Assembly: GCA_963611905.1 (NCBI GenBank)
Contig: CAVDTI010000109.1
Span: forward strand, 1-38,158
Direction of reading: 5' to 3'
From: Faecalibacterium prausnitzii
GTDB taxonomy: Bacteria; Bacillota_I; Bacilli_A; RFN20; CAG-826
DNA length: 38,158 nt
Part shown: positions 19,446 through 37,567 of the stretch, piece by piece
How the letters are laid out: the number at the start of each line of letters is the position of its first letter
Numbering within the stretch: position 1 is the first letter of the stretch
Position numbers and translations under genes: made by a program
The notes under the pieces: generated by a model
What the model saw: the letters and a program-made list of their open reading frames with translations, nothing else
The model's database searches: none
What the model was told of the DNA's origin: nothing

Positions 19446-21524
19446 TTATTCAGCAGAAGAAGATGCGAAATAGAAGCCTCCAACCATGCCATCTCCGCCA
19501 GCAGTAATCTCGATTTTAACGGAAACGGTTTGATCAACGTAATCAACTAAATCATAAGTTACAACAGACCATCCGGCATTTGCAACAAGAGTGGTTCCAT
19601 CTAAAGTAGCTGGATCCCCTTCCGCAATCGTAGGCGTAACGGCAACATCATTTACAGTGAGAGAATATTTAGCGCCATTGCCATGACCACGCAAATCAAT
19701 CGTCCAGACTGTATTTGAAGAAACAACCTGAACCTCGTTAACAGATAACGAATCTGCGTTATTAACGTGGAAATCAAGGCCCTCATTCCTTACATCAAAA
19801 TTGCTTCTATGATAAGCGTAAACACCAGTTGGATTCTCTGCATATGCCGTCCAAGCATTTTTGGCGTTTTCATCATTCTTTGAAACAGATCCGATAAATT
19901 TACCTGTACTAGCTGTGGTTAATTTGTCATTTGCAAAGTAGAATCCGCCAACCATTGCGTCACCACCAGCAACTATCTCTACTTTAAGTGTTACTACTTG
20001 GCCAATATATGAATCAAGACCAAAAGAGATAGTCGTCCAGCCATCATTGACATGAACCTTGCCGTCTTCATCCACTGTCGCTTTCAACTCAGCGTCCTCA
20101 GCTTTTTGGCAAGCTGAAATAGTTGGAACGACCTTTGTCTCATCAACATAGAAATAGAATTGTGAATTACGATCTCCAAATGAGCGAAGATCGACTTTCC
20201 AGGTTGAAGAAGCGGAATCAACTGTCACTTTTGTAGAAACAAAGCCTTGATAATTTTCATGAAGTTTAAGGCCTTCACTAGCAACTGTAGCTTGATTTGA
20301 CCATTCATAAACGGATCCATCTTTATCAAGTTCCGATGTCCATGCTGTATTGGCAGCACCGTCATTTCCATATGTCGATCCAACAAACTTATCGCTATCA
20401 GCCGTTGTAACGTTAGATTTGAAGCTGACTTTGTTAACGCATGTTGATGAGTTTGTTAAGCCAACAAACCAGACCCATACTTTTTGTCCAACATAGGAAG
20501 ACAAGTCATATGAGAAGGTTAGATATTCATCAGACTGAATCGAAACTGTATCATTGCCGTTTGCATCCTCAAGAAGAGTTGCATTGACATATACTTGCAT
20601 TTTTGAGTCTTCGCCTCTGAAATTTCGAGCCGAAATTGTCATAGATGATGTAGCAGCCGTAATTTCTCTGGCTTGATAATGAGCTGCGCCATATTCAATG
20701 CCAACGCCTTCGGAATAAGTGCCGCGCTTCACCTCATCAGCAACATACCAATCAGGTAAGGCTCCATCAGTTAAAGAGTAATTGGCTCCTGTTTTGATAT
20801 CACTATCGGCAATACTCGCTACATAAGTTTTGGATTCACTCCAGTCGGAATCTTGATAACGTGGTGTGTCAGTAGAAGCTGTCGCCTGAACCTTATATTT
20901 AACAACCTTGCCATATTTCGATGGATCAACTGATGTGGCAGTCTTTCCGAGATCAAATTCACGTGCTCCACCTTGAATATCAAGCTTAATATTATCAGCT
21001 TTGCTATGGATATTTGTAAGAGACCCATCATCACCGATTACTGGTGTTGGAAGCTTGCTTACTGTCGCCGTAAATTTAACGACATTAGATGCAGGAGAAT
21101 CTAGATATGAACCACTACTATTCTTGGCAATTACAGAATATGAATGTTCATTAACATCTACGATTGCTAACTGGTAGGTCAATTCCGAGATTGTTGCTAT
21201 CTTGTTCGTGCCATCATACACTTCGTATTGATCAGCATTGCTAACAGCAACCCAGCTAAGCGTCTCTGTCTCTGTATCAATAGATAAAGTCGTAGCTGAC
21301 AAAGCGGTTTTTTCTTGTGATGATTCCGATTTAGATTCTGACTTGTCTGTTGATGATTGTGATTCTTTGCTAGACGAAGAACTAGACGAAGAAGTCGACT
21401 CTTTCTTTGATGAGGTCGAACTTTCAGATGATACTTCGCTAGAGGACGAGGAAGGGTGAGAATCGCTACAACCCGCCAAAAGTAATGACGAAGCTAGTAG
21501 CAGCAAAAGTTTTTTCGTTTTCAT
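19446..21524 (-). CDS. Surface lipoprotein: Ser-rich linker, FN3-like domain, three tandem beta-sandwich (CBM-like) modules
   Basis: 692 aa with lipobox LAGC and a roughly 50-aa Ser-rich spacer. An FN3-like segment (LSWVAVSNADQYEVY) is followed by three related modules that end VWVWFVGL..., VEIVAGGDAMVGGFYFA and IEITAGGDGMVGGFYFA. Confidence 0.85.
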   Translation of the reverse strand: MKTKKLLLLLASSLLLAGCSDSHPSSSSSEVSSESSTSSKKESTSSSSSSSSKESQSSTDKSESKSESSQEKTALSATTLSIDTETETLSWVAVSNADQYEVYDGTNKIATISELTYQLAIVDVNEHSYSVIAKNSSGSYLDSPASNVVKFTATVSKLPTPVIGDDGSLTNIHSKADNIKLDIQGGAREFDLGKTATSVDPSKYGKVVKYKVQATASTDTPRYQDSDWSESKTYVASIADSDIKTGANYSLTDGALPDWYVADEVKRGTYSEGVGIEYGAAHYQAREITAATSSMTISARNFRGEDSKMQVYVNATLLEDANGNDTVSIQSDEYLTFSYDLSSYVGQKVWVWFVGLTNSSTCVNKVSFKSNVTTADSDKFVGSTYGNDGAANTAWTSELDKDGSVYEWSNQATVASEGLKLHENYQGFVSTKVTVDSASSTWKVDLRSFGDRNSQFYFYVDETKVVPTISACQKAEDAELKATVDEDGKVHVNDGWTTISFGLDSYIGQVVTLKVEIVAGGDAMVGGFYFANDKLTTASTGKFIGSVSKNDENAKNAWTAYAENPTGVYAYHRSNFDVRNEGLDFHVNNADSLSVNEVQVVSSNTVWTIDLRGHGNGAKYSLTVNDVAVTPTIAEGDPATLDGTTLVANAGWSVVTYDLVDYVDQTVSVKIEITAGGDGMVGGFYFASSSAE

Positions 21525-21537
21525 AACTTTCCTTTCT

Positions 21538-21552
21538 AAAAAAACGGTTTCC
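21538..21552. promoter_or_regulatory. Partial copy of the locus palindrome (AAAAAAACGGTTTCC = GGAAACCGTTTTTTT)
   Basis: A 13-nt match to the 17-mer at 30953 and 33669. It lies just upstream of the SD of the 692-aa lipoprotein gene, in the divergent intergenic region. Confidence 0.45.
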
Positions 21553-21623
21553 TGATAATTTAATTATACAGCCAAAACAATAAAATGAAAGCCCTTTCTT
21601 TAAAAAGAGCAAGACAACTCTGC

Positions 21624-21652
21624 TTAACAAAAACTTTATTCCTTTTTATAAT
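21624..21652 (+). promoter_or_regulatory. Near-consensus sigma-70 promoter TTAACA-N17-TATAAT placed six nt before the ATG (leaderless geometry)
   Basis: TTAACA is at 21624-21629 and TATAAT at 21647-21652, followed by ttcgat and the ATG at 21659. There is no SD. Confidence 0.55.
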
Positions 21653-21658
21653 TTCGAT

Positions 21659-22510
21659 ATGTTAAAGCGAATGGGAAGCAATAAAGAAAATTCTAAAAAA
21701 GATCGTTTACCAGAAAACAGGAAAGATCAATTTTTATTGTTATTAAAGAATAACTATATGAAAATGGTTATTTTTTCGATGATTGCTTTCGTTTTTGTGA
21801 TACCTATCATAGTTTTATTCATCGTAATGAACTATCAAACATCTCTATTGTTACAAGAAGATGGAGCAAATAAAGGAAACGTTATTTTCTCTGCTTGTTT
21901 GTCCTTTTCCCTTTACGTTTTGCCTCTTATAGCCCTACTTGGTTTGGGTTTTGCAGGTTTATTTTCCATAATGAAAGGCTTTGTGTATAACGAACCGGTT
22001 TTTTATTCTTCGTTTTTTATAGGCATCAAAAAGAACTATAAGCAATTCTTGTTCATTGCATACTTTACCTATTTGTTTTTTGTTCTTTTCCTTTTGACTT
22101 TTGCACGTTTCTATTATTTTTCTATTGGTCCATCAATCCTAAGATATGCGTTGATATCCTTAAGCGCAATTGTCTTTTTTGTCGTTCTAATAATGGCACA
22201 ATATATGTGCACTGCAGCTGTTAGATATGAATCAAGCTTTAAACAATTGCTAGCCAATGCTTTCAAATTGGTTTTTCACAAATGTTATTTCAATCTTCTT
22301 ATAGCAGTTTTATCTGTCGCCCCATGGTTGATAGCCATCTTTTTTAACGTAATAATTCAAATGATCGTGTTTTTATTTATGTTCGTGTATTTGTTAAGCT
22401 TTTTTGCCCTATTACTGACCTCATACCACGCCTCGATATATGATGAGTTCGTCAACAAAGATAAATTTCCCTCAATATATCGAGCTGGATTAGAGAAAAA
22501 ATCAGATTAA
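21659..22510 (+). CDS. YesL-like (DUF624) polytopic membrane protein
   Basis: 283 aa, with 5-6 hydrophobic helices after a basic N-terminus. Its position next to a sugar ABC system is typical of YesL/DUF624. The assignment rests on resemblance only. Confidence 0.5.
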
Positions 22511-23995
22511 AGCAGTTCCATTCTCGTCATCCAAGAAAAGATGAATATTATCTTCATTGAAAGTAACAAATGCCTTATCGTGTGGATTGATTTTCGTCGT
22601 CGCTGGAGCTGTTATTGCTAATTGAGCGCCATTCAATAAACCATGAACAATGAATTGCGCACCAAGGAGCTCTACTATTGTCGTTTCAATCATTTGTCCT
22701 TTGTCATTGATCAATATGTCTTCTGGACGAATGCCAAGCGTTACCTCGAGGCTGCCTTTTTCAATTCTGTCCTTCAATGAAGAAATGTATTTATTTCGCT
22801 TTCCTAAAACTTCGTCGTTTTTAACCACCTCAACAACGTCGACCTTTTTCTTATTAATTCTCGTGGCCAAATTTGATTTTGTATAATAGTCAGTAATGTT
22901 ATCTTTTATAGTTAACGAATTTCTTTCGTAGTTTTCAACGAAAGATTTCAACTTTTCTTTTATCGTTTCGATTTGTTTTTTATCTAACTTAAAAGTGACA
23001 CCGCCAACATCGATATGACCATCGTTTATATTGTAGGTTGCATTAAGCAAATTCATTGCTGGACTTCCAATGAAGGTGGCAACAAAACGATTTGCTGGAT
23101 TACGATATATCTCCTCCGGCTTTCCTATTTGTTGAATGTAGCCCTTATTCATAACAATGATTTTATCCGCCATAGTCATCGCTTCGGTCTGATCATGTGT
23201 AACATAAATTGTAGTTGCTCCTATCTTTTCATGAAGATCAACTATTTCGCTTCTCATGGCGACACGAAGCTTAGCATCAAGATTGCTAAGCGGTTCATCC
23301 ATCAAGAAAAGCTTCGGGCTTCTTACTATAGCTCGCCCTAAGGCAACACGTTGTTGTTGACCACCAGAAAGAGATTTTGGCTTTTGGTTAAGAAATTGTT
23401 CAATATCGAGAACTTTGGCGGCGTTTTTAATACGTGCATCAATCTCATCTTTTGAATATTTGATGTTCTGGAAAGCTGGAATTGGATTTGATTTGACTTC
23501 AACTATTTTATCTTCAAAATCCTTAATCTCGTTTTTCAAAAATAAACGTTCGTCATCAGTTAAATTCTTTTTCTTTAAGCTTTTTGAAGCAATTTTGATT
23601 TGCTTCTCTAAATATTTGATTGTTTTAGAATCAATCACCATTTCCTGATTTCCATCCTTGTCAAGCTTAGGAACCTTGATTCTATGGTTCTTTAAACCAA
23701 AGGCCATATTCTCATAAACGGTCATGTGAGGATAGAGGGCGTAATTCTGAAAAACCATCGCAACATCACGATCTTGTGGTGAAACATTGTTAAACAAAAT
23801 GCCATCAACATAAAGTTCACCATCACTAATGCTTTCTAATCCTGCAATCATACGGAGCGTAGTACTTTTCCCGCATCCAGAAGGACCGACAAATACAACA
23901 AACTCCTTATCTTTTATGTCAAAAGAAAAATCATGAACGGCATGAAAACCATTGTCATAGATTTTATTAATATTTCGCAAGATGACATTTGCCAT
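22502..23995 (-). CDS. Sugar ABC transporter ATP-binding protein (MsmK/UgpC/MalK type) with a roughly 75-aa insertion
   Basis: 497 aa with Walker [11 protein letters not shown]-loop [10 protein letters not shown], signature LSGGQQQR, Walker [13 protein letters not shown] and a C-terminal MalK-like regulatory domain. A charged insertion lies between FGLK and the signature motif. Confidence 0.9.
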
Positions 23996-24032: not shown

Positions 24033-25445
24033 TTATGCATAAAGTTTGGCACTAAGCAAGACACAATGATTCACGTTTTTATTGATTGAAGCTAAAGTAA
24101 GCGTCACGGTTTTGCCTATGTAATTAGCAAAATCGTAAGTGTACGTGAAATGAGGATCCCCTACACCTGCTTCAACCGTAACATATTCGGTATCAACACC
24201 ATTTGCTTTGACAATATCTCCATCAACGCTAGTGGTAACCTTTGCCTTGTCCGTATCTTGATTTACAAACATACGCCAACTTACGCTGAAGTATCTTTTT
24301 TCGGTTGTTAAGGCGATTTTTATTGAAGCCTTACCGCTTCCGGCAAAATCTGGCCCCTCATTGATTGAATTAACCGAAGAAGTATACCAATCAGAGAAGA
24401 AAGCGGTCTTATTTTCCCATGCGACATTATCGCTTAAGCTGGCTCCTGCTTTTTCTAGCATCGCCACCGATGTTATGCAGCAATGCGTCGCAGCAGCTTC
24501 ATAGAACTTTATGAAGACGTTTTGTCCAACGTAATCTGATAAATCGTAGACAAAATCAACAGGAGAGTCGCTGCAAAGAGTAACATACTCTGTTTCGGAG
24601 TCATTCGCTTTAACAAGTGCTCCATCAATATAAACGTAAAATTTAGGATTTGTTTCGCCATCACGAACGAAATTTCTAATTGAAACCTTAAGGAATTTCG
24701 TCTCGTTTGTAATGCTATGATAAACAAAGGCTGTAGCTCCGGCCTTCATATCAAAGCCTTCCCCTACACCGGTGTCGTAATCACCAGTTCTTGTCCATTC
24801 TTCATATAAAGACTTGCGGTTCCAAGAGGTCGTGGTATTTAAAGTAATACCCTCAACATTTTTGTAGACAACAGTATTTGATAAAGGCGAAAGCTCATCG
24901 CCGCGTTTTGCTTGGACTTGAAGATTGTAGCCACCAACTTCGCTAAAAGAAAGCGTGTAAGAGGTTGTTTCAACATCAACAAGATATTCTCCATTACTAT
25001 ATATACAGTATTTCTCAGCACCAACAACTTCGTTCCAAGACAACGTTTTATCGCTTAAAGAAATGGTCGGAGCAAGGAGAGCTGCTGGTTTTTCGTAGGT
25101 GTAAGATACGGCGTTGCTCTTATCGCTATCCAAATAGACTCCATTTCTATCGATGGCTTGGATATAGTAAGAATAAGTGCCGCTTTCTTCCAATGATATC
25201 TCATAAGATAAAGTATTAAGATGGCCATATTTGATTTGACCATTTTCATAAAGCCTATACGACGTGGCGTTATCGATTTTTTCCCAACTAATTAAATTGT
25301 TTTCGATTTTAATCACTGGCGAAGCTAGTTTCTTAATGACCTCACTAGATGAAATATCCTGAGTTTTGCTAGAAGAAGCTGGTGTTGAGCATCCCACTAA
25401 AAGAAATAATGAGACTGGAAATAAAAGCAAGTTATTCTTTTTCAT
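24033..25445 (-). CDS. Surface lipoprotein: two FN3-like domains plus two beta-sandwich (CBM-like) modules
   Basis: 470 aa with lipobox LVGC. It has FN3-like repeats (LISWEKIDNATSYRLYENG, LSWNEVVGAEKYCIYSNG) and two modules carrying FVYDLSDYVGQNV and YTYDFANYIGKTV. Confidence 0.85.
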   Translation of the reverse strand: MKKNNLLLFPVSLFLLVGCSTPASSSKTQDISSSEVIKKLASPVIKIENNLISWEKIDNATSYRLYENGQIKYGHLNTLSYEISLEESGTYSYYIQAIDRNGVYLDSDKSNAVSYTYEKPAALLAPTISLSDKTLSWNEVVGAEKYCIYSNGEYLVDVETTSYTLSFSEVGGYNLQVQAKRGDELSPLSNTVVYKNVEGITLNTTTSWNRKSLYEEWTRTGDYDTGVGEGFDMKAGATAFVYHSITNETKFLKVSIRNFVRDGETNPKFYVYIDGALVKANDSETEYVTLCSDSPVDFVYDLSDYVGQNVFIKFYEAAATHCCITSVAMLEKAGASLSDNVAWENKTAFFSDWYTSSVNSINEGPDFAGSGKASIKIALTTEKRYFSVSWRMFVNQDTDKAKVTTSVDGDIVKANGVDTEYVTVEAGVGDPHFTYTYDFANYIGKTVTLTLASINKNVNHCVLLSAKLYA

Positions 25446-25457: not shown

Positions 25458-27734
25458 TTATTCAATACTGATAGATTTGCATTTCACAATTTCGCCACTG
25501 CCTTCGCCGCTGTCATCGCTTTCAAAGACAAGCAATCCTTTTTTGCCATTTAAAGAATATGATGAGAGATCGAAGGTGAGAGTAACAAATTCTCCGCTTT
25601 GGAAGAGATAATATCCATATTTATCAATTTTGGATTTATCCCATTCATTTGCGACCAAATTAATGGAAGAAGCACCACGCTTATTGTTTGGATCCTCCAA
25701 ATAGAGCCTAACTCTCAAATTAACGTCTGATGAAGCGGAACCAGATTTAGCAACCATTGTTATCTTTTTCTCTGAACCATCCCAGTTTTTCATCGCATAA
25801 GCGTAGGCATTAGGAATGTAATCATCTCTATCATCAAGATCGGATCCGTCTAAATAAATACCGTCACTTGTGTATTTGGCGCTATCGTATTGGAGGCCAC
25901 CGCACCCAAGCGTCCAGTCAGTTTGTTCTCCAGTTGAGAAATCCCAACTCTTTTTATCTGTAACTGGCGTATCCTTAACATCGTTCCAATAGAATGGATC
26001 AGTCTCAATATCACATAATTCGCTATCTTTATAGGAGGCTGGGGTGTGATCAAGTACCTCCTCAACATCTTCATGTTTTACATTCTCCGTTATCAAATCG
26101 ATGAATTCGCCTGCATTGACAACCTCAACGTGGTCATCAAGTTGTTCGATAAAACGATTGATGTATTCCATCGTACCAATAGACCATGCGTGGCATACAA
26201 CAGCTGAATAAGCATCGATAGATGTAATATCGGTAGAACGATCGTTAATACGCTGAGCTACGCGTTCGGTATATCCATAATATTTGGCAACCGAAGATCC
26301 CGAAACTCTCCAAAGAGTATCACGGAAACAGACAAATGGCTTATCATTGCTCCAATGAACGCTTCCAGCACCAGCATCTCCTCCTTGGACGTAATAATCG
26401 CTAACACTCCAAAGACCGCCTTTAATGTTGTCGTATTGAGTGAAATAATCCAAATAATCAGAAGTTACATAATTATCAATAAAATTGAGAACGCTTAAAC
26501 CAGATTTTTCGCAATATCCAGCAGTTTTTGCAGCATAATCAGCCATGGCATTTGCGTTATAATCATTAACATTGACATAGCCAAATCCTGAAGGACCGCA
26601 GATGAAATCATCTTTTTCAGTGGCTTTATCATAAATGGATTCCATGACGTAAGGGGCTACATCGCTTAATGCAGGAGCCATCGTCCAGTTCATCTTGAAC
26701 TTCCCACGATACTTCGATCCATAATATTTACTATCAGTTTCAAAACCTCTTTGAAGCCATTGAACGTTATCACCATCTGACATAACAATAGTGACATAAT
26801 GTTTGCCTTTTTCGGCTTTAACCGTTGATTTAACACGATTGGCAGGCTCTAAATCTTTGTTTATATCTTCTGCTGCCATGAAGGAAAGATTACCACTCCA
26901 ATCTGAAGCAATTGTCACCATTGAATAATTGGAATTGTAGCCAACAAAATCTCCTTCAGATTCAGTCCAGCCAAAAACTGGGCAATTTGAGCACGTCCAT
27001 TCAGATATCTCTTTACGGAGTTCATCAGTGAGATATTCAACATACGTGCACAAAGCAACACCGCTAATGCCGTAATCTCTTAAAGGAAGAGATGTTGGAG
27101 ACTGGTTGATAAGATAGGTGTTGTTTAAATATTGCTTATAATTATGGAAAACTACTTCATCGCTCAAACTTGAAGCATCGGCACCAAGTTTAAAACCTGC
27201 CGCTAAACACTGACTGACAAGGCTATTTTCTACCATAATCCATTGCTCAACACCAGATATAGTGGCGGCTCGATTGATGGAGTTGTCATATCTGTCACCT
27301 TTGTCGGTGGAGGTATATGTCACGAACTTTTTATTCACAACGGCAGTTTTGAATTTATCAAGAAGCTCCCACGAATCATCGATTGAGGTAAGCGTAAAGC
27401 CAAGCTTCTTGCTCATCTCAGAGATTGTTTCATCTTTCTCACCCATTCCAGAGATGAAGATAGTTGCTTTTTCCTGAGCCAAAATCCCTTGCAAGGATTG
27501 GATCATCACGAATTCCGATGTAGTCATCGAACTTCTCGGAATCACATAACAAGTTGAAGCGTAACCATCAGGTTTATAAAAAGCTCCTTCTTTTATTTTC
27601 TCTACTGGCGCATCGTTATTTTTTGAGCTCGACGTATCGTCTTCTGCACCACTTTTGCTTGATGTTTCATTTGAAGCACACGAAGCAAGCATAGTGCCTA
27701 GTAGTAAGAGCAAAAAGGTAGTTTTCTTTTTCAT
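25458..27734 (-). CDS. Surface lipoprotein with a GxGYxYP-type putative glycoside hydrolase domain and a C-terminal beta-sandwich module
   Basis: 758 aa with lipobox LASC. The core HYVTIVMSDGDNVQWL...FICGPSGFGYVNV is paralogous to the 511-aa protein at 32099-33628. The C-terminal module carries TLTFDLSSYSLNG. Confidence 0.7.
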   Translation of the reverse strand: MKKKTTFLLLLLGTMLASCASNETSSKSGAEDDTSSSKNNDAPVEKIKEGAFYKPDGYASTCYVIPRSSMTTSEFVMIQSLQGILAQEKATIFISGMGEKDETISEMSKKLGFTLTSIDDSWELLDKFKTAVVNKKFVTYTSTDKGDRYDNSINRAATISGVEQWIMVENSLVSQCLAAGFKLGADASSLSDEVVFHNYKQYLNNTYLINQSPTSLPLRDYGISGVALCTYVEYLTDELRKEISEWTCSNCPVFGWTESEGDFVGYNSNYSMVTIASDWSGNLSFMAAEDINKDLEPANRVKSTVKAEKGKHYVTIVMSDGDNVQWLQRGFETDSKYYGSKYRGKFKMNWTMAPALSDVAPYVMESIYDKATEKDDFICGPSGFGYVNVNDYNANAMADYAAKTAGYCEKSGLSVLNFIDNYVTSDYLDYFTQYDNIKGGLWSVSDYYVQGGDAGAGSVHWSNDKPFVCFRDTLWRVSGSSVAKYYGYTERVAQRINDRSTDITSIDAYSAVVCHAWSIGTMEYINRFIEQLDDHVEVVNAGEFIDLITENVKHEDVEEVLDHTPASYKDSELCDIETDPFYWNDVKDTPVTDKKSWDFSTGEQTDWTLGCGGLQYDSAKYTSDGIYLDGSDLDDRDDYIPNAYAYAMKNWDGSEKKITMVAKSGSASSDVNLRVRLYLEDPNNKRGASSINLVANEWDKSKIDKYGYYLFQSGEFVTLTFDLSSYSLNGKKGLLVFESDDSGEGSGEIVKCKSISIE

Positions 27735-29617: not shown

Positions 29618-30883
29618 TTATTTGTCCAATTTACGGTCAGTTTCATTTTGGCATTCTTCTTGGCAAGAAGCGATCGCTTGCGCGATAGTTTCTTCGCTAG
29701 AAGCTGTTACGCATTTATAAAGCATTGTTACAAGTTTCTTCTCCATGAAAGGCCAAATTGGCGTCGCTGGACGAGGAGTAACGTGCTCTAATTGCGAAGC
29801 ATAGATAGATAAGTATTTATCGCCAGTGTAATAGGCGTCGCCAAGAGCTTCCTTTGTTACAGGAAATAAACTGCCGGCTTTAGCAAAATTCAATTGGCTA
29901 TCTTTATCAGTGCAAAGATATTTAGCAAACTTGTAAGCCTCATTAACACAAGAGGATTTTTGCGCAACCGCAAGAGAATAAAGACCCAAGCCAGAATATC
30001 CTGTTCCGCCATCTTTAAGAGGAAGCATCTCACTAATACCTAACTCAACAGCGTTATAATTGATCTTACTAAGATTCCAAGAGCCCATCTCAATAAAGGC
30101 GCATTTGCCATTATAAAATTTGCCTTCCTCGTATTCATTCTGCGAAGCAAATTTGGATAACTTTATCCATTCATTAATTGCAGCCTTAACCTCTGTGGAG
30201 TCAATCTTGATGGTTTTGCAATCATCCGACACTAAGCTACCACCCAAACGTGAGACATAACTCACGAATTCCATTGCGGAGAAAGTTGAATTGATTGGCT
30301 GAGCAAAAGCAACTTCTGAACTTTCACAACTATTTTTTATTTTTGTAAGATCAGCAAGGAATTCATTATATGTTGTTGGTGCTGTATTAATGCCATATTT
30401 TTTGAGCATTGTCATATTGTACATAAGGGCAACCGTATTAGCGGACATCGGAAGAGCATACGCTTTCCCCAAATATGAATTCGCGTTATAGATGTTTTCT
30501 GGGACCAAAGTTTTAACCTCTTCATCCGCACCAAGCGAAGAAAGATCGGCAAGCTGTCCCTCATTAGCAAGAGATTGAACGTATACGTGATCAATAATTG
30601 CAATATCTGGGCGTGATTTGTTGTCATTTAGGGCAACTTGATAAGCTTGATAAAGATCAAGTCCAGATTTCTTTACGATTTTTATTGTGCAATTTGGATT
30701 TTCCGCCTCAAATTTCTCCTTGGCGTTTTGGAGAACTTTCAAGTAATCCGTATTTGATGGCCACCAAACGGTGATGGTCTTATTCTCGGATCCGCCACTT
30801 TCGTCTCCTGTTTTATGATTACAACTAGCCAATGTTGATGAAAGTAATAACGGAAGGATGAATAATTTGAATTTGTTCTTCAT
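29618..30883 (-). CDS. Carbohydrate ABC transporter substrate-binding lipoprotein
   Basis: 421 aa with lipobox LASC. Its layout is that of a family-1 extracellular solute-binding protein. It is the first gene of a six-gene minus-strand operon (30883 down to 22502). Confidence 0.85.
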   Translation of the reverse strand: MKNKFKLFILPLLLSSTLASCNHKTGDESGGSENKTITVWWPSNTDYLKVLQNAKEKFEAENPNCTIKIVKKSGLDLYQAYQVALNDNKSRPDIAIIDHVYVQSLANEGQLADLSSLGADEEVKTLVPENIYNANSYLGKAYALPMSANTVALMYNMTMLKKYGINTAPTTYNEFLADLTKIKNSCESSEVAFAQPINSTFSAMEFVSYVSRLGGSLVSDDCKTIKIDSTEVKAAINEWIKLSKFASQNEYEEGKFYNGKCAFIEMGSWNLSKINYNAVELGISEMLPLKDGGTGYSGLGLYSLAVAQKSSCVNEAYKFAKYLCTDKDSQLNFAKAGSLFPVTKEALGDAYYTGDKYLSIYASQLEHVTPRPATPIWPFMEKKLVTMLYKCVTASSEETIAQAIASCQEECQNETDRKLDK

Positions 30884-30952: not shown

Positions 30953-30969
30953 AAAAAAACCGTTTTTTT
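30953..30969. promoter_or_regulatory. Candidate LacI-family operator AAAAAAACCGTTTTTTT (odd palindrome)
   Basis: Perfect AAAAAAC-C-GTTTTTT symmetry between a candidate promoter (minus strand TTGTTT-N17-TATATA, 30993-31021) and the SBP gene. The same 17-mer occurs at 33669-33685. Confidence 0.5.
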
Positions 30970-31067: not shown

Positions 31068-31095
31068 ATAAAGAAAAGCTCAGTTAGACTGAGCT
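31068..31095 (-). terminator. Rho-independent terminator after the LacI-family gene
   Basis: The minus strand reads AGCTCAG-TCTAA-CTGAGCT followed by TTTCTTT. Confidence 0.7.
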
Positions 31096-31113: not shown

Positions 31114-32112
31114 TTATTCTTCAAATTTGAACGAATCGTTAATGTGCAACTTGCTTCTGATGAGCACATTATTAGGAGAGCCATCATTCATAATTTCTCT
31201 AAGTTGAATGGAGGCTTGAAGAGCTAATTGGTCATAATCCTGTTCAGCATAAGACAAAGAAACATCAAAAGAATCTAGGTCTTTTTTTGATGAACCTAAA
31301 GCAAAAACAAACACGTCTTTGCCGACAACAAGATTTTTGCTTTTAATTGCTTGATAAACGCCTTTTGCAATAATAGATGAGCCGACAATAAATGCGTTAT
31401 AACCCTTTTCCAAGGATAGCGATGCATGGTAAAAGCCTTCTTCCACAGAGGAATTTTCAGTGTAAAAAGAAGCGTGTAAAAGGGGATTTTTCTCATTAAT
31501 TGCTTTATTGAAACCTTTTTCACGATCTTTTGAGATCGTTAGGGATTTATTAGAATTGATAAGGCATATCTTATCTCCGCCATTATCAATCATTTTGCCA
31601 GCAATATACTCACATAAAGCCTCGTTATCAGTGTCCACGCATGTTATTTTATCTGAATCGGTAGAACCAATAACAACGAAGGGTATGGAATTAAGTTCCA
31701 TTTCTGAAATACGTGTATCCATAAGAGTTGGTCCAACTAAAATTGCTCCATCAATTGGAGATTGACCTTTCTTCAATTTATCCGCTACTTCTTTCTCTTC
31801 TGGCCCAAAATAGAGCAAGACATCTACATCATAATCGCTCCAATAAGTAACGATCGTGCGAATAACATCATTATAGAAAGTATGGTATCTTCTTGTTGAG
31901 GTTTCCAAGAATATGCCAATTATATTTGTCTTTATATCATTGACATTTCCCAAAACCGAAGCGTAAAAGTTAGGAGAATAGTTAAATTCTTTGCAGACTT
32001 TGAGTACTTTTTCTCTGATTGGCTCAGAAACGTATCTTTTGCCTGATAGAACATTACTTACTGTAGACTTTGCTACACCCGCTTTTTCCGCAATATCATT
32101 AATTGAAGCCAT
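31114..32112 (-). CDS. LacI-family transcriptional regulator
   Basis: 332 aa with the N-terminal HTH INDIAEKAGVAKSTVSNVLSG and a periplasmic-binding-protein-like sugar-sensing domain. It overlaps the upstream gene by 14 nt. Confidence 0.9.
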   Translation of the reverse strand: MASINDIAEKAGVAKSTVSNVLSGKRYVSEPIREKVLKVCKEFNYSPNFYASVLGNVNDIKTNIIGIFLETSTRRYHTFYNDVIRTIVTYWSDYDVDVLLYFGPEEKEVADKLKKGQSPIDGAILVGPTLMDTRISEMELNSIPFVVIGSTDSDKITCVDTDNEALCEYIAGKMIDNGGDKICLINSNKSLTISKDREKGFNKAINEKNPLLHASFYTENSSVEEGFYHASLSLEKGYNAFIVGSSIIAKGVYQAIKSKNLVVGKDVFVFALGSSKKDLDSFDVSLSYAEQDYDQLALQASIQLREIMNDGSPNNVLIRSKLHINDSFKFEE

Positions 32113-33628
32113 TCATCGTTTCCTCTGTATTAGATTTTATGTTTTTTCTCATCAAAGAAATCAATTGCTCAATTCCTAAGATTTGTACATTTTCATCTAA
32201 TAGTTTAACCAATTTATCTAGGTCATCACAAGTGGTAGACCAAGGATGAACGTTTATGACGCTATAACCATCCTCGCTATGAGGTGCTATAGGCAATGAG
32301 TTTATCAAAGCTGCTAGCCTTAGAATTAATTGGTCTTTGTTTGTCTTTTCCTCTTCTTTGCTCTCAAAAATATTCCAAAGGGAGGCTTTTACTGAAATAA
32401 ATGGTTTATCATCGATCCAGAATATTTTCCCTTTTCCGCCTTCATATTTAATCGGATCTATCTCATATACACCGCCTATTATGTTCTGATGCTTAGCATA
32501 AGTTGATAAAACGAAATTAACATTTTCTTCATTCATATCCTTAAGATTGTCCAGAAGCATAACAACATTAATCCCCATCAAAGAGAGATATTCACTCGTT
32601 TTTTTTGTATAAAAAGGCAAGTGTTCTTTAGGGAAAACGCAAGGATTCATATATCCGTATCCCGAAACTCCACAAATGAAATCCTCATTAGTGGCATGAT
32701 CATAAATATATTCAAGGCATTTTGGATTTAAGTCGATAAGCGCTGGACTTACTGACATTGTTAAAGGATAGTTCCTCTTTACTGTTGCAAAATTTTTATA
32801 AAAAGAACAGAAACAAAATTCTCTTTCAAGCCATTGAATATTGTCTCCATCACTAACTACAAACGAGACATAATGCTTATTCGGTTTAATCTCTTCGACA
32901 TGCTTTTTTCTTTCAACTTTTTTTGGTGAAAAAGTTCCGAAAAATGAATGATTCGAGCTCCAATCCATCGGAATAATAGCATCGCCGTACTTAGATATCT
33001 GGCTAACAAAAGAGATTTCATCACTCGTCCATCCGTATATACATATGCCTTTGTCTAAATAAGAAAGAACTTCATCCAAGAAACGCCTTTGTTCTTCGCT
33101 TTCATCAACATAAAGAACAAACCATTTATTCGTTATAGAAAAATCGAGTAATGAGATAAGGAAATTATCATCACTTCTCGCAATAGGCTGATGAATTAAG
33201 CCGTTTTTGGCCAATTTATCTCTATATTTATCAAAGGCGTATTTTTGAATTTCTAAATTATCTAGCCCAAGTTTAGTTAGATCCTCAAGCAATAAGAGTT
33301 TTTCTTTTACAAGATATTCTAGAGTATCAGGGACAGCTAAAGCGCCAGTAGCAGCTGCAATAGAAAAAGCAGCATTGATCTCGGTAGATTTTGAATCCAA
33401 GTGATATAAAACATAATGGGACAAAGACGACATGAACATATTAACAACGCTCATGAAGTCAACCGAGTCAAGCTCATATTTGGATCTATCTATATATTCA
33501 AGATAATGATCCACATCTAGAAGCAAGGTTTGTTCTTTTTTGTTCACTAAACCTTGTAAACACGTAAAGAAGGCAAGTTCTTCGTAAGTGAGTTTATTTC
33601 TGCTCACATAAAATATCTGTTTTTTCAT
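32099..33628 (-). CDS. Cytoplasmic GxGYxYP-type putative glycoside hydrolase (paralog of the 25458-27734 core)
   Basis: No signal peptide. HYVSFVVSDGDNIQWL...FICGVSGYGYMNP aligns by eye with the lipoprotein paralog. The ATG at 33628 (MKKQIF) is preferred over the TTG at 33634. Confidence 0.7.
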   Translation of the reverse strand: MKKQIFYVSRNKLTYEELAFFTCLQGLVNKKEQTLLLDVDHYLEYIDRSKYELDSVDFMSVVNMFMSSLSHYVLYHLDSKSTEINAAFSIAAATGALAVPDTLEYLVKEKLLLLEDLTKLGLDNLEIQKYAFDKYRDKLAKNGLIHQPIARSDDNFLISLLDFSITNKWFVLYVDESEEQRRFLDEVLSYLDKGICIYGWTSDEISFVSQISKYGDAIIPMDWSSNHSFFGTFSPKKVERKKHVEEIKPNKHYVSFVVSDGDNIQWLEREFCFCSFYKNFATVKRNYPLTMSVSPALIDLNPKCLEYIYDHATNEDFICGVSGYGYMNPCVFPKEHLPFYTKKTSEYLSLMGINVVMLLDNLKDMNEENVNFVLSTYAKHQNIIGGVYEIDPIKYEGGKGKIFWIDDKPFISVKASLWNIFESKEEEKTNKDQLILRLAALINSLPIAPHSEDGYSVINVHPWSTTCDDLDKLVKLLDENVQILGIEQLISLMRKNIKSNTEETMNGFN

Positions 33629-33636
33629 ATGCAAAC

Positions 33637-33668: not shown

Positions 33669-33685
33669 AAAAAAACCGTTTTTTT
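33669..33685. promoter_or_regulatory. Candidate LacI-family operator AAAAAAACCGTTTTTTT in the divergent control region
   Basis: Identical to the 17-mer at 30953-30969. It lies between the divergent GxGYxYP-lacI and GH38-HAD transcription units and overlaps a candidate -35 (TTATTT-N17-TAGAAT) for GH38. Confidence 0.5.
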
Positions 33686-33735
33686 ATTTCCATTTTTATG
33701 CAACAATAGAATAAAAGAAATTGAGGCATCTTAAA

Positions 33736-36582
33736 ATGAAAAAAACAATTCATCTTATTAGCGGTACTCATTGGGATAGAGAATGGAGACACACAGCCGA
33801 ACAAAGCAAACTCCGTTTAGCCGACCTAATGGACCACATCATCGACATCTTGGAAAATAAACCATCCTACGAATGTTTCTGCGTAGACGGAGGAACGATC
33901 GTTTTAGAAGATTATTTCACCGTCAGGCCAGAAAATAGAGAGCGTGTACAGAAGCTCATAAAAGACGGAAAAATGATCATTGTCAATTGGTATACTCTAC
34001 CAGAAACAAACACGGTCGCGCCAGAAAGCATGATCCGTAACCTTTTAACAGGAAGAAGAATGGGCAAAGAATTTGGTGGAGCAATGAAATCCGGTTACAC
34101 CGCCACTTCTTATGGCCAGCCAAGCCAGCTTCCACAACTTTATCAAGGATTCGGAATTGAAAACGCTATTTTCTATCGCGGAACGAACAAACATTTCTTA
34201 ACCCCACTATTCAAATGGTCGGCACCAGATGGAAGTTCCATATTTACTTTACGTACCTTTGATGAAGTGACTAGAACGAATTGGTTTTTCTATGTCCATG
34301 GTCCAGCAGTTTTAGGGAAGGGATTGAAAGATCTTTCGTATAAATACAATAAGAATGAAGCCCCAGTTCACATGGTCGATATGGGTTCTTATGAAAAAGC
34401 ATTCGTTGCCACAAAAGAAAACGAAGATTATATCCATGACGAAAAAGTATTGAAACGTTCATTGGATTACCTTCTGAACCAAGCAGAACCATACGCCATC
34501 GGAAATAACATTCTCGCTCTCAACATGGAGGATAATGATGAGCCATATCGATACCTTCCTGAACTTATTGCGGATATGAACAAAATTTATCCTGACTACG
34601 AAATCAAACAGGAAAGATTGGATGACTATATGAAAGTCATCATGGATTTGGCTAAAAATGGTGAATATAAGTATGAAAGTTATGTAGGAGAACTCCGTAA
34701 TACCACTTTCTCCCCAGATGATTTCAACGCTTTATTGGGAGCAACGCATTCTTCCCGTATAAATATTAAATTAATGAACGAAGAATGCGAAAATGGCCTT
34801 ATCAATTTAGCTGAACCTTTGACAAGTGCTTCATACCTTCTTGGTGGAGAATATCCCGCAACAAACATCGAACACGCTTGGCACACATTACTTAAATGCC
34901 ACGCCCATGATAGTATTTGCGGAGCAGCTGTCGATAGAGCACACACAGACATGAATTACTCCTTCTCCGTCACAAAAACGGTAGCCGAAGAAGTAACAAA
35001 CCGCGCTTGTGTAAGTCTTTATCAAAAAATAGATACCAAGACTAATTTCCAAAACGATGACTATCCAATTGTCATCTTTAATACGTTGCCTTTCGAAAGA
35101 GAAGAAGTTATTGAACTCGTTATCGACACTCCAAAAGATTCCGTAAAAATGATAGATAACGGCATGGGCGCACCTGTACCAGCCGCAACTTTCTTCGATA
35201 TAGTCGATGACAAAGGCAATGTTGTTGAAAGCAAAGAACTAAGTTCAGAGAGTGCTCTAGTAGCCATTGAAAAACAAACGGATACCAAAGCTATAAAATT
35301 TGAAACCATCAGGAGACACATTTTAGTCAAAGCAAAAGTCCCAGCAAATGGGTATGCAACCTATGCCCTCCGTATGAGATTGGCCAATTTAGCCTTTGAT
35401 CCACAAATTATCGACAACCGCAAACTTATCGCTAGAAGTAACGGCGTTTTGGAAAACGAATACCTTAAAGTCGTGATTAACCCAAACGGAACATTTGATA
35501 TGCTCGACAAAGCAACAAATAGATGGATGAGAAATCAAGGATACTATACCGACGCAGGTGAGGTTGGCAGCGCTCATGAACACGCTGAGCCAAAGGTCAA
35601 CAAAACTTACACTTCATTTGGTTGCAACGCAGATATTGAAATGATTGAAGGAAACAATCTCTTAAGAGGAGTCTATCGAATTGCGTTAACAATGAATATT
35701 CCTGCAGAAGCATCCTTAGATGCCCATGAACGAGTATCGGAATTGAAACCTCTACGTATCGAAACATACCTGACCCTTGAAAAGGGTGCAAAAGCACTTA
35801 AAGTTAAAACAACCCTTATTAACGAATCAAGAGATCACAAGCTTTGCGTCCATTATCCAACAGCGATCTCCAATGCCGATTGGTGCTATGCCGAATCAGC
35901 TTGGGATGTTGCAAAAAGAACAATTAAGTGGCGTGATCATAAAGACAATAAGGAAGATTTCTATTCATTCCAACCTATGCAAAATTTTGTCGACGTAAGC
36001 GATGGTAAATTAGGATACGCCTTCCTTTCGAAAGGCCTTAGAGAATACGAAGTCGAAGATGATGAAAATCGTACCTTGAAAATCACTTTAATCCGTACGC
36101 AAAGAGCCTATATGACAGCCAACAGCAAAATGACAGTTGCTGAAACTCATAAATATACAGGCCAACATTGCCTAGGCACTTTAACTTATGAATACGCTTT
36201 ATACCCACATACTGGCTTATGGAACGAAGGCAATGTATTTGAACAAGCCTACGCAAATAAAGTAAATATGAAAGCCATAATGGGCGTTCCGACCGAGGGA
36301 AAACTTCCATCAACATCATCGTTTATTAATGTAACTGGTGGCGATGGGGCCATTGTCTCAGGCGCATTCAAATTAGCGGAAAACGGCAAGGATATCATCT
36401 ACCGTATATGGAATAACTCTGGCGAAAGCAAGAGCCTTAACATTTCAACTGTCTTCGATTTAAAGGGAGTCAAAGAAGTCAAACTCGATGAGACTCCAAT
36501 CAAAGACATTGAATTAAATGGAAATAGTTTTGCTTATGAGCTTAAACCTCATAAAATTGCAACGTTCTTATTGGTGAAATAA
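33736..36582 (+). CDS. Glycoside hydrolase family 38 alpha-mannosidase (MngB-like, cytoplasmic)
   Basis: About 948 aa with the N-terminal metal-site motif HLISGTHWDREWR and no signal peptide. The ATG at 33736 has a GAGG SD; the track start at 33721 is TTG. Confidence 0.85.
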   Translation: MKKTIHLISGTHWDREWRHTAEQSKLRLADLMDHIIDILENKPSYECFCVDGGTIVLEDYFTVRPENRERVQKLIKDGKMIIVNWYTLPETNTVAPESMIRNLLTGRRMGKEFGGAMKSGYTATSYGQPSQLPQLYQGFGIENAIFYRGTNKHFLTPLFKWSAPDGSSIFTLRTFDEVTRTNWFFYVHGPAVLGKGLKDLSYKYNKNEAPVHMVDMGSYEKAFVATKENEDYIHDEKVLKRSLDYLLNQAEPYAIGNNILALNMEDNDEPYRYLPELIADMNKIYPDYEIKQERLDDYMKVIMDLAKNGEYKYESYVGELRNTTFSPDDFNALLGATHSSRINIKLMNEECENGLINLAEPLTSASYLLGGEYPATNIEHAWHTLLKCHAHDSICGAAVDRAHTDMNYSFSVTKTVAEEVTNRACVSLYQKIDTKTNFQNDDYPIVIFNTLPFEREEVIELVIDTPKDSVKMIDNGMGAPVPAATFFDIVDDKGNVVESKELSSESALVAIEKQTDTKAIKFETIRRHILVKAKVPANGYATYALRMRLANLAFDPQIIDNRKLIARSNGVLENEYLKVVINPNGTFDMLDKATNRWMRNQGYYTDAGEVGSAHEHAEPKVNKTYTSFGCNADIEMIEGNNLLRGVYRIALTMNIPAEASLDAHERVSELKPLRIETYLTLEKGAKALKVKTTLINESRDHKLCVHYPTAISNADWCYAESAWDVAKRTIKWRDHKDNKEDFYSFQPMQNFVDVSDGKLGYAFLSKGLREYEVEDDENRTLKITLIRTQRAYMTANSKMTVAETHKYTGQHCLGTLTYEYALYPHTGLWNEGNVFEQAYANKVNMKAIMGVPTEGKLPSTSSFINVTGGDGAIVSGAFKLAENGKDIIYRIWNNSGESKSLNISTVFDLKGVKEVKLDETPIKDIELNGNSFAYELKPHKIATFLLVK

Positions 36583-36583
36583 T

Positions 36584-37567
36584 ATGGTTGAAATCACAAA
36601 CATCGGATCATTTTCCGAAAAAGATGGTTTAATCAAACTAGACGCCACATCCGACGATAAATTCCATGTAGGCGTTAATGGCGTCAAATCAATCGTGTCC
36701 ACAGGCGACAGAAAAGTTGAATTCATCTCTTTCTCTGATCACTGTTTGGCCTTCGTGAAGTCTTCAATTGGTTATAACGCCTATTATCCAATCAATAAGG
36801 TATCGATCAAACGTCCGATAAAGGCGGTTCTAATGGATTTAGATGGAACCTCGGTAAAAAGTGAAGAATTCTGGATTTGGATCATCGAAAAATCTATTTC
36901 TTCATTGATGAATGATCCGTCTTTCAAATTAGACGAAAGCGATTTGCCTCATGTTTCAGGCCATAGCGTTTCTGAACATCTTCAATACTGCATAAACAAA
37001 TATTGCCCAGATAAAAAGCTTGAAGACGCACGTGCTTATTATTTTCAACATACCGAATTCGAAATGAATGAAATAATGGAGGGAAGAGGAAAGGAAGGAG
37101 CATTTACGCCAGCAAAAGGCATAAAGGAATTCTTACTAGCTTTGAAGGAAAGGAATATCAAAATAGGCCTGGTTACATCAGGTTTGTATCAAAAGGCTTG
37201 GCCAGAAATCTTATCCGCTTTTAAAACCCTTAATATGGGGGACCCTAAAGATTTTTATGACGCAATAATTTCTGCTGGTTATCCCCTCAAGAAAGGAAGC
37301 GTAGGAACACTTGGAGAGTTATCGCCAAAACCACATCCATGGTTATACGCTGAAACTTGCACTGTGGGCCTTAACATTCCTTTTGAAGATCGCAATTCCG
37401 TAGTTGGCATAGAGGATAGCGGAGCTGGCGTATGCTCAATTCGCTTAGCTGGTTATCCAACAATCGGCATTTCAGGAGGAAATATAGAATCCAGCGGAAC
37501 TAAATCATTGTGCGATTTTTATGCTGACGATTTTTCATCGATTTTGAAATATATAGATGGAAAATAA
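36584..37567 (+). CDS. HAD-IA superfamily hydrolase (phosphatase or beta-phosphoglucomutase-like) with an unassigned roughly 80-aa N-terminal domain
   Basis: Motif I is LMDLDGT (aa 83-89), motif II is GLVTSG, and motif IV is IEDSGAG. The start lies 1 nt after the GH38 stop. Confidence 0.8.
   Translation: MVEITNIGSFSEKDGLIKLDATSDDKFHVGVNGVKSIVSTGDRKVEFISFSDHCLAFVKSSIGYNAYYPINKVSIKRPIKAVLMDLDGTSVKSEEFWIWIIEKSISSLMNDPSFKLDESDLPHVSGHSVSEHLQYCINKYCPDKKLEDARAYYFQHTEFEMNEIMEGRGKEGAFTPAKGIKEFLLALKERNIKIGLVTSGLYQKAWPEILSAFKTLNMGDPKDFYDAIISAGYPLKKGSVGTLGELSPKPHPWLYAETCTVGLNIPFEDRNSVVGIEDSGAGVCSIRLAGYPTIGISGGNIESSGTKSLCDFYADDFSSILKYIDGK

Follow-up and report, generated by a model that had tools for sequence, protein, structure and literature searches.

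Proteins of the GxGYxYP family are among those most over-represented in gut metagenomes, a crystal structure has been available since 2011, and the association of the family with alpha-mannan polysaccharide utilization loci (PULs) and with glycoside hydrolase (GH) families GH92 and GH38, together with the structure and a putative catalytic triad, was published in 2014 (Rigden et al., PMC4071793). In Bacteroides thetaiotaomicron, the GxGYxYP genes BT3857 and BT3859 sit in a PUL that is induced by alpha-mannan (PMC4071793). Here, we describe a locus at positions 19446-37567 of contig CAVDTI010000109.1, an entire contig of a metagenome-assembled genome (MAG) that was analyzed over its full length of 38,158 bp and is referred to below as the window. 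The locus encodes two GxGYxYP paralogs, one lipid-anchored and one cytoplasmic, together with an ATP-binding cassette (ABC) importer, surface lipoproteins, a GH38 alpha-mannosidase, a HAD protein, and a LacI-family regulator. We regard it as probable, at about 0.6, that this is a Gram-positive-type utilization locus for a mannose-rich glycan, most likely a fungal or yeast-type alpha-mannan or mannoprotein, that is repressed by its own LacI.

One of the closest described counterparts is B. thetaiotaomicron PUL69/MAN-PUL3 (BT3853-BT3862; GH92, GH99), which responds to yeast alpha-mannan and likewise encodes two GxGYxYP paralogs with alpha-mannosidases; however, it relies on SusC/D and an ECF-sigma/anti-sigma pair instead of an ABC importer and LacI, it has no GH38-HAD gene pair, and its GxGYxYP proteins gave no detectable activity. 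Among Gram-positive bacteria, the N-glycan system of Streptococcus pneumoniae reportedly combines an ABC importer with GH38, GH92, and GH125, and loci of this kind are said to share with the window a surface enzyme with surface binders, CUT1 import, cytoplasmic exo-mannosidases, and a local repressor. In the window, by contrast, the candidate surface enzyme belongs to an orphan family rather than to GH18, GH85, or GH76, and a paralog from the same orphan family is also present in the cytoplasm. Gram-positive loci with ABC import, surface binders, and LacI control are a known kind of system; what is new here is the locus architecture with its outside/inside GxGYxYP pair, the equivalence of one gene slot to that of GH76 in related loci, the predicted operator, the GH38-HAD cassette, and the surface proteins composed of MAM-like and FN3-like domains.

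The 12 genes of the locus are organized in five transcription units. A preliminary description had counted fourteen, but the gaps hold no additional non-overlapping open reading frame (ORF) of at least 40 amino acids (aa); apart from this count, the count of lipoproteins, and the label of one membrane protein, the features that it named are present where it placed them, and its assignments of the ABC importer, LacI, GH38, and HAD are upheld by Pfam and NCBIfam. Unit 1, on the minus strand, is a six-gene operon with gaps of 0-37 nucleotides (nt) that encodes a solute-binding protein (SBP), two permeases, the 758-aa GxGYxYP lipoprotein, a 470-aa lipoprotein (lp470), and the ATPase. Unit 2, also on the minus strand, contains the genes for the 511-aa GxGYxYP protein and LacI, which overlap by 14 nt and are followed by a hairpin and a T-run. 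Unit 3 is divergent from unit 2 on the plus strand and encodes GH38 and HAD, unit 4 is the lone gene of a further lipoprotein, lp692 (minus strand), and unit 5 is the gene of a polytopic membrane protein (plus strand). Three lipoproteins do exist besides the SBP, as first reported, but just two of these are non-enzymatic, the third being the GxGYxYP protein itself. Taking a Gram-positive PUL, as an operational definition, to require the co-localization of a regulator and a transporter with one or more glycan-degrading enzymes, we find all three in the locus, co-localized and predicted to be co-regulated.

Both paralogs, which had been recognized from short motifs alone, are true members of the GxGYxYP family, with the GxGYxYP_C model scoring 182 bits for the 758-aa protein and 172 bits for the 511-aa protein at a gathering cut-off of 27. 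The extracellular lipoprotein (25458-27734, minus strand) matches PF14323 (2e-53), PF20958, and PF16216, and the cytoplasmic protein (32099-33634, minus strand; 509-511 aa, no signal peptide) matches PF14323 (3e-50), PF20958, and PF20957; the N-terminal three-repeat domain that precedes the barrel corresponds to PF16216 plus PF20958 in the former and to PF20957 plus PF20958 in the latter. The two proteins are 27% identical across ~500 residues (E 2e-51), in agreement with the proposed paralogy. The quoted segments at nt 26574-26597 and 32648-32671 translate to GPSGFGYV and GVSGYGYM, and the name motif as a whole reads GFGYVNV and GYGYMNP, with Gly-x-Gly-Tyr kept and the second Tyr replaced by Asn. 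This motif is loose within the family, because BT2193, the B. thetaiotaomicron member of solved structure, itself has GSSYIFP.

Searches for a characterized family returned the GxGYxYP models alone from Pfam, nothing from NCBIfam, and a single structure from the PDB (2026 copy), namely 3SGG, which is BT2193 deposited as a 'hypothetical hydrolase' and which remains the sole PDB relative when profile searches are included. The matches to 3SGG have E values of 8e-43 (758-aa protein), 9e-36 (511-aa protein), and 7e-68 (profile of the cytoplasmic clade), and they extend over both structural domains, the alignments of the window proteins spanning chain residues 49-533 and 124-533 and that of the clade profile residues 48-534. 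Glu272, Asp331, and Asp333 of BT2193, in the cleft between the repeat domain and the 7-stranded barrel, have been proposed as the catalytic triad (PMC4071793). The equivalent residues of the cytoplasmic protein are E206, D262, and D264 in the 511-aa ORF, or E204, D260, and D262 when numbered as in database protein P0001 (509 aa), whose start corresponds to ATG 33628, the likely true start of the window gene. These residues are invariant in a 13-sequence alignment of the cytoplasmic clade, in which about 50 residues are invariant altogether, and the 758-aa paralog and no less than 90% of its clade likewise keep the triad; the SDGDN nest is kept in both window proteins. BT2193 differs from the window pair, beyond the low identity and the divergent motif, in being a periplasmic or surface protein of a Sus-type PUL, whereas the window encodes one lipid-anchored protein with a tail resembling carbohydrate-binding modules (CBMs) and one cytoplasmic protein. 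GH195, a new alpha-1,3-mannanase family described in a 2026 paper, is a relative of GH99 and does not have this fold.

The 758-aa protein opens with MKKKTTFLLLLLGTMLASC, a lipobox (MLASC), and its catalytic region covers approximately residues 62-552. The split between an outside and an inside copy, proposed in the preliminary description from these two sequences, is a feature of two clades: 96 of 99 cytoplasmic-type homologs have no hydrophobic N-terminus, and 54 of 55 extracellular-type homologs possess one, with a lipobox in 47 of those 54. The 14-nt overlap with lacI agrees with the co-transcription of the signal-less paralog and the regulator. Neither of the other lipoproteins contains a domain of catalytic type, which leaves the long GxGYxYP protein as the only candidate for an extracellular enzyme in the window. 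We propose, from these sequence features, that it acts as a glycan-cleaving enzyme at the cell surface and its paralog as an intracellular enzyme on the imported oligosaccharide, an arrangement that would amount to endo action outside and oligosaccharide processing inside; both would presumably be glycosidases. Among 1.84 billion representatives, the family comprises 2,868 clusters at 50% identity (E up to 1e-3). The sole catalytic domain seen in fusion with GxGYxYP is a PTP-like phytase, with protein P0340 consisting of a phytase and a complete GxGYxYP region. In P0327, which is cut at the contig end, the C-terminal half of a GH38 is joined to a signal-less GxGYxYP protein, and P0096 and P0198 are GxGYxYP-LacI read-through fusions; the GH38 and LacI fusions lend weak added support to functional coupling.

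The C-terminal 206 residues of the extracellular paralog (553-758; 25461-26078, minus strand) form a separate beta-sandwich module in the structural model (pLDDT 90, pTM 0.85) that carries the conserved acidic motifs DGSDL...PN...DDxGxGxGE, and one or two copies of such a ~200-residue module follow the catalytic region in all long-form homologs. The top Foldseek matches are the carbohydrate-binding domain of a mannanase (1wky), CBM15, CBM22, CBM27, CBM29, and a MAM domain, at E values of about 1e-5, TM scores of 0.4-0.5, and identities of 13-16%. The binding-type module that had been reported for the surface paralog is thus borne out at the level of the fold, and the model supports a resemblance to CBMs as a fold class rather than placement in a CBM family, given that Pfam returned no match either for this tail or for the tails of 3 related extracellular homologs.

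To define the conserved surroundings of the pair, one genome per GTDB species was scanned, yielding 550 confirmed relatives, and the best 80 loci were fetched and all their ORFs clustered; the family counts given below refer to the 47 non-redundant loci in which LacI adjoins the short paralog, with accessory clusters named from Pfam. The core arrangement is shared by contigs with homologs at 77%, 45%, 41%, and 39% identity, so that its conservation in related genomes holds, and the module extends across two bacterial classes, down to about 30-45% identity of the cytoplasmic paralog. The usual order is HAD-GH38, then divergently the short GxGYxYP-LacI pair, followed by (large MAM-type surface protein)-SBP-permease-permease-long GxGYxYP. 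An SBP is encoded in 38 of the 47 loci, GH38 and HAD in 32 each, and a MAM-type surface protein of the lp692 cluster in 21-29; less frequent are mannose-6-phosphate isomerase (15), ROK kinase (8), GH92 (6), hexokinase (5), GH125 (5), GH76 (4), a GtaA-like six-hairpin protein (4), and a GH127-like lipoprotein (3). The preliminary guess of a mannose-containing substrate is strengthened by the GH92, GH125, GH76, mannose-6-phosphate isomerase, and hexose kinase genes of these sister loci. None of the families that handle N-acetylglucosamine (GlcNAc), that is, GH20, GH18/85, NagA/B, and GH130, recurs among the 47 loci.

Two positions of the module are exchangeable. In the alpha-mannosidase slot, GH38 can be replaced by GH92 or by a GtaA-like protein. 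The last slot of the ABC operon, filled by the long GxGYxYP gene in the window, is occupied in one variant by two GH76 homologs and an unknown secreted protein, with GH125 then present and, in some loci, isomerase and hexokinase as well, and in a second variant by a GH127-like lipoprotein and a Ricin/FN3-repeat lipoprotein; the long GxGYxYP is absent from this slot in both variants. GH76 and GH125 act on alpha-1,6-mannan. The polymer is probably of the fungal type because GH76 and GH125 occur in sister loci, a GxGYxYP pair is found in the B. thetaiotaomicron mannan PUL, and GlcNAc catabolism is missing. Taken together, the position of one GxGYxYP protein as the sole surface candidate, that of its cytoplasmic paralog beside an alpha-mannosidase, and the presence of GH76 in the same slot narrow the substrate search to mannans of the fungal type and the groups that decorate them.

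The module is carried by gut MAGs from humans, ruminants, rabbits, birds, and a termite, whose names assign them to Bacilli, Izemoplasmatales, Acholeplasmataceae, Mollicutes, Christensenellaceae, Oscillospiraceae, and other Clostridia. The distant Acutalibacteraceae loci (L051-L085; ~32% identity, 555-aa proteins), with mostly housekeeping neighbors, no LacI, and no operator, are uninformative. The closest GTDB-representative relatives (L006, L007, L031) are titled 'Prevotella sp. CAG:755', 'Bacteroidaceae bacterium', and 'Akkermansia muciniphila'. All three loci are of Gram-positive type, lacking SusC/D but encoding a CUT1 ABC importer and lipoproteins with a lipobox, and the next relatives carry the names Bacilli, Izemoplasmatales, and Acholeplasmataceae; it looks as if the titles are mistaken or the contigs mis-binned. 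The secreted protein that lies between the permease and GH76 genes (cluster c37) is ~480-540 aa long, has no Pfam match, and is found at 19369-20991 of L004, at 15373-16827 of L019, and in 3 more loci.

The cytoplasmic GH38 alpha-mannosidase (33721-36582, plus strand), with a likely start at ATG 33736 that gives a protein of 948 aa matching its orthologs, shows all four domains of the family (N-terminal, middle, C-terminal, and beta-sandwich), each above the cut-off of its Pfam model, and its closest solved structures are 3lvt/5kbp (5e-88) and 2wyh (1e-72). In this four-domain architecture and in its cytoplasmic location it resembles the enzymes of Enterococcus faecalis (3LVT/5KBP), Streptococcus pyogenes (SpGH38, 2WYH), and Escherichia coli (MngB); unlike these, the window type of GH38 is always paired with a specific HAD protein, and its score of 426 bits against the NCBIfam MngB equivalog model (NF007331) falls below the cut-off of 1138, so that by sequence it is a relative of MngB and not an equivalog.

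The transcriptionally coupled partner gene (36584-37567, plus strand) encodes an HAD-IA protein of the beta-phosphoglucomutase-like type, a sugar-phosphate phosphatase or mutase (HAD_2 1e-10, Hydrolase), with the motifs D85-L-D87-G-T89, T198-S199, K249, and E277-D278, which 23 orthologs share without variation. At the N-terminus, an extension of ~78 aa is conserved that has no Pfam or PDB match, and in searches of the PDB with the single sequence and with a 23-sequence profile the best match was beta-phosphoglucomutase, at E values of only 6e-4 to 4e-3. The mean column identity of the HAD alignment is 75%, and in distant loci the median identities of GH38 and HAD to the window proteins are 63% and 67%, as against 30-42% for their neighbors (LacI 40%, short GxGYxYP 38%, SBP 33%, long GxGYxYP 30%). 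The HAD gene tracks GH38, not GxGYxYP, and is gone where GH92 or a GtaA-like protein takes the place of GH38.

The regulator (31114-32112, minus strand) has the composition of the LacI/GalR family, that is, a helix-turn-helix (HTH) domain (PF00356, 9e-17) and a type-I periplasmic-binding-protein effector domain (PF13377, Peripla_BP_3; PF00532, Peripla_BP_1). Operators of LacI-family proteins are usually even palindromes with a central CG, as exemplified by the CG-centered palindromic CcpA cre, TGWAANCGNTNWCA. Three candidate operators of this form were identified in the window: O1, AAAAAACCGTTTTTTT, at 33670-33685 within the 86-bp promoter region that the cytoplasmic GxGYxYP gene shares with the divergent GH38 gene; O2, with the same sequence, at 30954-30969 upstream of the SBP gene; and O3, AAAAAAACGGTTTCCT, at 21538-21553 between a TATAAT-like box and the ribosome-binding site of lp692. 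The palindrome core AAAAACSGTTT matches three sites in 38 kb, all of them in promoters of the locus, as against 0.18 matches expected from shuffles. As in other LacI/GalR systems, the sites are 16-nt even palindromes with a central CG and overlap promoters, including that of the operon of the regulator itself; the half-site ARAAAAM, an A-tract, sets them apart from cre.

The palindrome is kept elsewhere at two of the same positions, one lying where GH38 and GxGYxYP diverge and the other between lacI and the gene of the transporter or surface protein. Across 776 kb, the pattern AAAANCGNTTTT yielded 110 sites; of the 40 LacI-type loci, 38 have one or more and 34 have two or more. The consensus of the sites, ARAAAAMCGKTTTTYT, is again a 16-nt even palindrome centered on CG. 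The distant GxGYxYP loci that lack LacI have almost no sites, and most of the sites in loci scored as lacking LacI occur where lacI had been masked by an antisense ORF in gene picking. The occurrence of the palindrome in all three promoter regions and at the same positions in relatives supports a single regulon, in line with the co-regulation that had been anticipated. LacI is predicted to bind all three palindromes, and the location of O3 between the -10-like box and the ribosome-binding site would fit repression. A terminator-like hairpin with a T-run (31077-31095, minus strand) directly 3' of lacI parts the GxGYxYP-lacI unit from the transporter operon. Promoter and terminator scans of the window gave 48 versus 61 and 14 versus 12.7 predictions (observed versus shuffled), not above expectation, and from these scans this hairpin and the promoter of the membrane-protein gene were kept as hints alone.

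From these components, the following pathway can be put forward. As long as the substrate is absent, LacI would occupy the 16-nt CG-centered palindrome at the three promoter regions, which belong to the SBP operon, to lp692, and to the two divergent units, GxGYxYP-lacI and GH38-HAD. The polymer would be held at the cell surface by lp692 and lp470, with their FN3 stalks and MAM/CBM-like beta-sandwiches, and cut into oligosaccharides by the lipid-anchored GxGYxYP protein, aided by its CBM-like tail. The CUT1 importer, consisting of the SBP, two permeases, and an MsmK-like ATPase, would take up the oligosaccharides, and in the cytoplasm the signal-less GxGYxYP protein, GH38, and HAD would reduce them to mannose, which would enter glycolysis. 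Release of LacI would be triggered by an imported oligosaccharide or a product thereof. In this scheme, we infer the identity of the polymer, the role of HAD, the endo action of the outer GxGYxYP protein, and repression as opposed to activation.

Several observations weigh against this interpretation. A literature search found no published activity for any GxGYxYP member, the 2014 paper alone being relevant, and the members encoded in the B. thetaiotaomicron mannan PUL gave no detectable activity (H. J. Gilbert, personal communication in PMC4071793); plain alpha-mannanase activity on standard yeast mannan is therefore unlikely. The 7-stranded barrel is of a type common to CE4 esterases and allantoinases, and non-glycosidase chemistry is therefore possible. 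No gene for mannose-6-phosphate isomerase or a hexose kinase was found in the window, and a phosphatase has no evident place in an ABC pathway, outside the phosphotransferase system (PTS). The host is uncultured and known as a MAG alone, and the function of the operators, like the direction of regulation, is read from sequence.

Three other readings, each of which we judge to have a minor share of the probability, retain some force. In the first, host or dietary glycoproteins would supply the substrate, a high-mannose N-glycan. Its release would fall to the surface GxGYxYP protein, in the role of a GH18 or GH85 endo-beta-N-acetylglucosaminidase, and once GH38 has trimmed the alpha-mannoses, the core beta-mannosyl or chitobiose linkage would be cleaved by the cytoplasmic paralog. 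The layout is like that reportedly found in the S. pneumoniae N-glycan system, with its ABC importer and GH38/GH92/GH125, and the nearest solved GH38 structures come from the host-associated Enterococcus and S. pyogenes. Rigden et al. favored beta-linkages of the N-glycan core, from the GH9-like geometry of the triad (PMC4071793). A locus of this kind would, however, be expected to handle GlcNAc, for which no gene recurs among the 47 loci; the GH76 endo-alpha-1,6-mannanase homologs of the sister loci fit fungal outer chains and have no substrate in a host high-mannose N-glycan, and a single alpha-mannosidase is few for Man9. We consider the N-glycan substrate unlikely.

In the second, which we hold to be similarly improbable, the GxGYxYP proteins are not glycosidases but remove, or cut at, a decoration such as a mannosyl-phosphate diester, a phosphate, or an acyl ester, opening the mannan to GH38, GH92, GH76, or GH125. 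Consistent with such a role, the barrel fold is common to CE4 deacetylases, and another superfamily of the same barrel type holds predicted phosphoesterases; an HAD phosphatase accompanies the pair in 32 of the 47 loci, and standard mannan gave no activity in B. thetaiotaomicron (PMC4071793). On the other hand, loci of the window type would then be left without any extracellular depolymerase to supply the ABC importer, BT2193 is devoid of the CE4 catalytic residues, and the glycerol bound in the BT2193 cleft, together with its conserved aromatics, suggests a sugar site. HAD, moreover, goes with GH38 and not with GxGYxYP, and is missing where GH92 or the GtaA-like protein replaces GH38.

The third is again a long shot: working alongside phosphatases, the GxGYxYP proteins would attack a mannose linkage of non-canonical type, one that escapes detection in standard alpha-mannan assays. 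Candidate linkages may include the mannosyl-1-phosphate diester of fungal phosphomannan, mannosyl-inositol-phosphate, or O-mannosyl. Such a linkage would explain the negative B. thetaiotaomicron assays, the fusion to a PTP-like phytase, the near-obligate and extremely conserved GH38-HAD partner, and why one and the same chemistry is required both at the surface and in the cytoplasm. The phytase fusion in P0340 and the beta-phosphoglucomutase-like HAD beside GH38 in 32 loci point to phosphate. If true, this reading would imply a new enzyme activity and a new CAZy-type family.

Import of a small mannoside, such as a mannosylglycerate-like compatible solute or head group, with GH38 of MngB type, HAD as the matching phosphatase, and GxGYxYP as an accessory, appears very improbable. 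It would accord with MngB being the best NCBIfam match of GH38 (426 bits) and with the high conservation of GH38 and HAD (63-67%, versus 38-40% for neighbors), as expected for a small invariant substrate, but the MngB score is far under the cut-off of 1138, MngB acts on a substrate phosphorylated by a PTS whereas the locus has no PTS, two to three large surface binders and a CBM-bearing surface enzyme argue for a polymer, and GH76 and GH125 occur in sister loci. The notion that the GxGYxYP proteins are non-catalytic binding or scaffold proteins, which draws on the lack of detected activity in the family, carries scarcely any weight, as a cytoplasmic glycan binder with an invariant acidic triad and ~50 invariant residues is hard to explain without catalysis, the surface copy already has a CBM-like module, and the locus has dedicated binding lipoproteins.

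With degradation of a mannose-rich polymer as the preferred reading, the locus provides a test bed for an orphan enzyme family. It is a minimal conserved system in which GxGYxYP is the sole surface enzyme candidate and its paralog the obligatory cytoplasmic partner of an alpha-mannosidase, and the matched binders (the SBP, the surface lipoproteins, and the CBM-like module) and the repressor-operator pair can be used as probes for the true ligand. The locus also suggests competition for mannose-rich glycans by uncultured Bacilli/Mollicutes and Clostridia of the gut, a niche that, to our knowledge, has so far been documented mainly for Bacteroides.

The two other surface lipoproteins are paralogs of each other (E 2e-19) and, judging from models and domain matches, are proposed to be glycan-binding proteins, lp470 acting at the cell surface. 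The larger, lp692 (19446-21524, minus strand; 692 aa, lipobox LLLAGC), has its own promoter and operator, matches the Pfam family InhA-like_MAM (E 1e-09), and contains, besides a linker rich in Ser and an FN3-like stalk, a series of repeated beta-sandwich domains that are MAM/CBM-like. In lp470 (24033-25445, minus strand; 470 aa, lipobox LLVGC), for which the Pfam MAM match is weak, the AlphaFold model (pLDDT 87.5) shows two FN3-like domains followed by two beta-sandwich domains, and Foldseek matched FN3 arrays, Bacteroides surface glycan-binding proteins of the SGBP-B type (7kwb, 6e57), and a CBM22 tandem. Like SGBP-B and SusE/F-like proteins, lp470 and lp692 are beads-on-string, with an Ig/FN3-like stalk followed by beta-sandwich binding domains, and have their genes beside those of the transporter; in contrast to these proteins, with which they have no sequence relationship and a whole-chain Foldseek TM score below 0.25, they are MAM-like (PF20773) Gram-positive lipoproteins. 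Homology of the tail of the extracellular GxGYxYP protein to the MAM-like domains of lp470 and lp692 is weak (hhalign probabilities of 6% and 30%, and 75% versus larger orthologs); the models suggest a common fold class and no more. The FN3-like stalk repeat (..ISW..V..A..Y.vY.NG..) that opens both lp470 and lp692 also opens otherwise unrelated lipoproteins, the GH127-like and Ricin-repeat ones of an Acholeplasmataceae genome (L042, 15654-21491), and looks like a surface-display stalk shared in this lineage.

The importer has the full composition of a CUT1 system: the binding lipoprotein is of the SBP_bac_1/8 type, the two permeases belong to BPD_transp_1, and the ATPase, of MalK/MsmK type, has a regulatory domain at its C-terminus. 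The SBP gene comes first in the six-gene operon (29618-30883, minus strand); the protein matches SBP_bac_8 and SBP_bac_1 as well as sugar-binding SBPs in the PDB and has the lipobox TLASC. The permeases are encoded at 28649-29617 (BPD_transp_1, 5e-07) and 27747-28646 (BPD_transp_1, 1e-19), both on the minus strand, and the MsmK/UgpC/MalK-type ATPase, whose gene is the last of the operon, at 22502-23995 (minus strand; ABC_tran, OB_MalK, TOBE_2; NCBIfam UgpC, 453 bits). At 497 aa, the ATPase exceeds the size of MalK/UgpC by about 120 aa, and a ~75-aa Lys/Glu-rich insertion lies within the nucleotide-binding domain, where the 137-position ABC_tran model spans residues 21-236.

The gene of the 283-aa polytopic membrane protein (21659-22510, plus strand) converges on the ATPase gene, with an overlap at the ends, and is kept in 9-15 related loci. 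The description of the protein as YesL-like is not supported: the window protein has no Pfam match, DUF624 (PF04854) was reached by one of 8 orthologs (E 0.04), and the MusI model (NF052431) gave 15.9 bits (E 0.009), far below its cut-off of 160, so that DUF624 and MusI are weak hints. The annotated start of this ORF lies 7 nt past the -10 box of the best promoter-like sequence (21624-21652, 11 of 12 matches), and translation probably begins at a Met codon further downstream.

Scans of the window for Rfam families and for tRNAs gave no matches. The first 19 kb of the contig (1-19 kb) are occupied by housekeeping genes, including those for a pyrophosphatase, DegV, the Pst-PhoU phosphate system, a two-component system, and oxidoreductases. 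An MFS_2 glycoside-type transporter is encoded at 3524-5155 (minus strand), 14 kb from the locus; homologs of this transporter (cluster c16, 12 loci) adjoin the distant, LacI-less GxGYxYP genes of Acutalibacteraceae, which may be coincidence.

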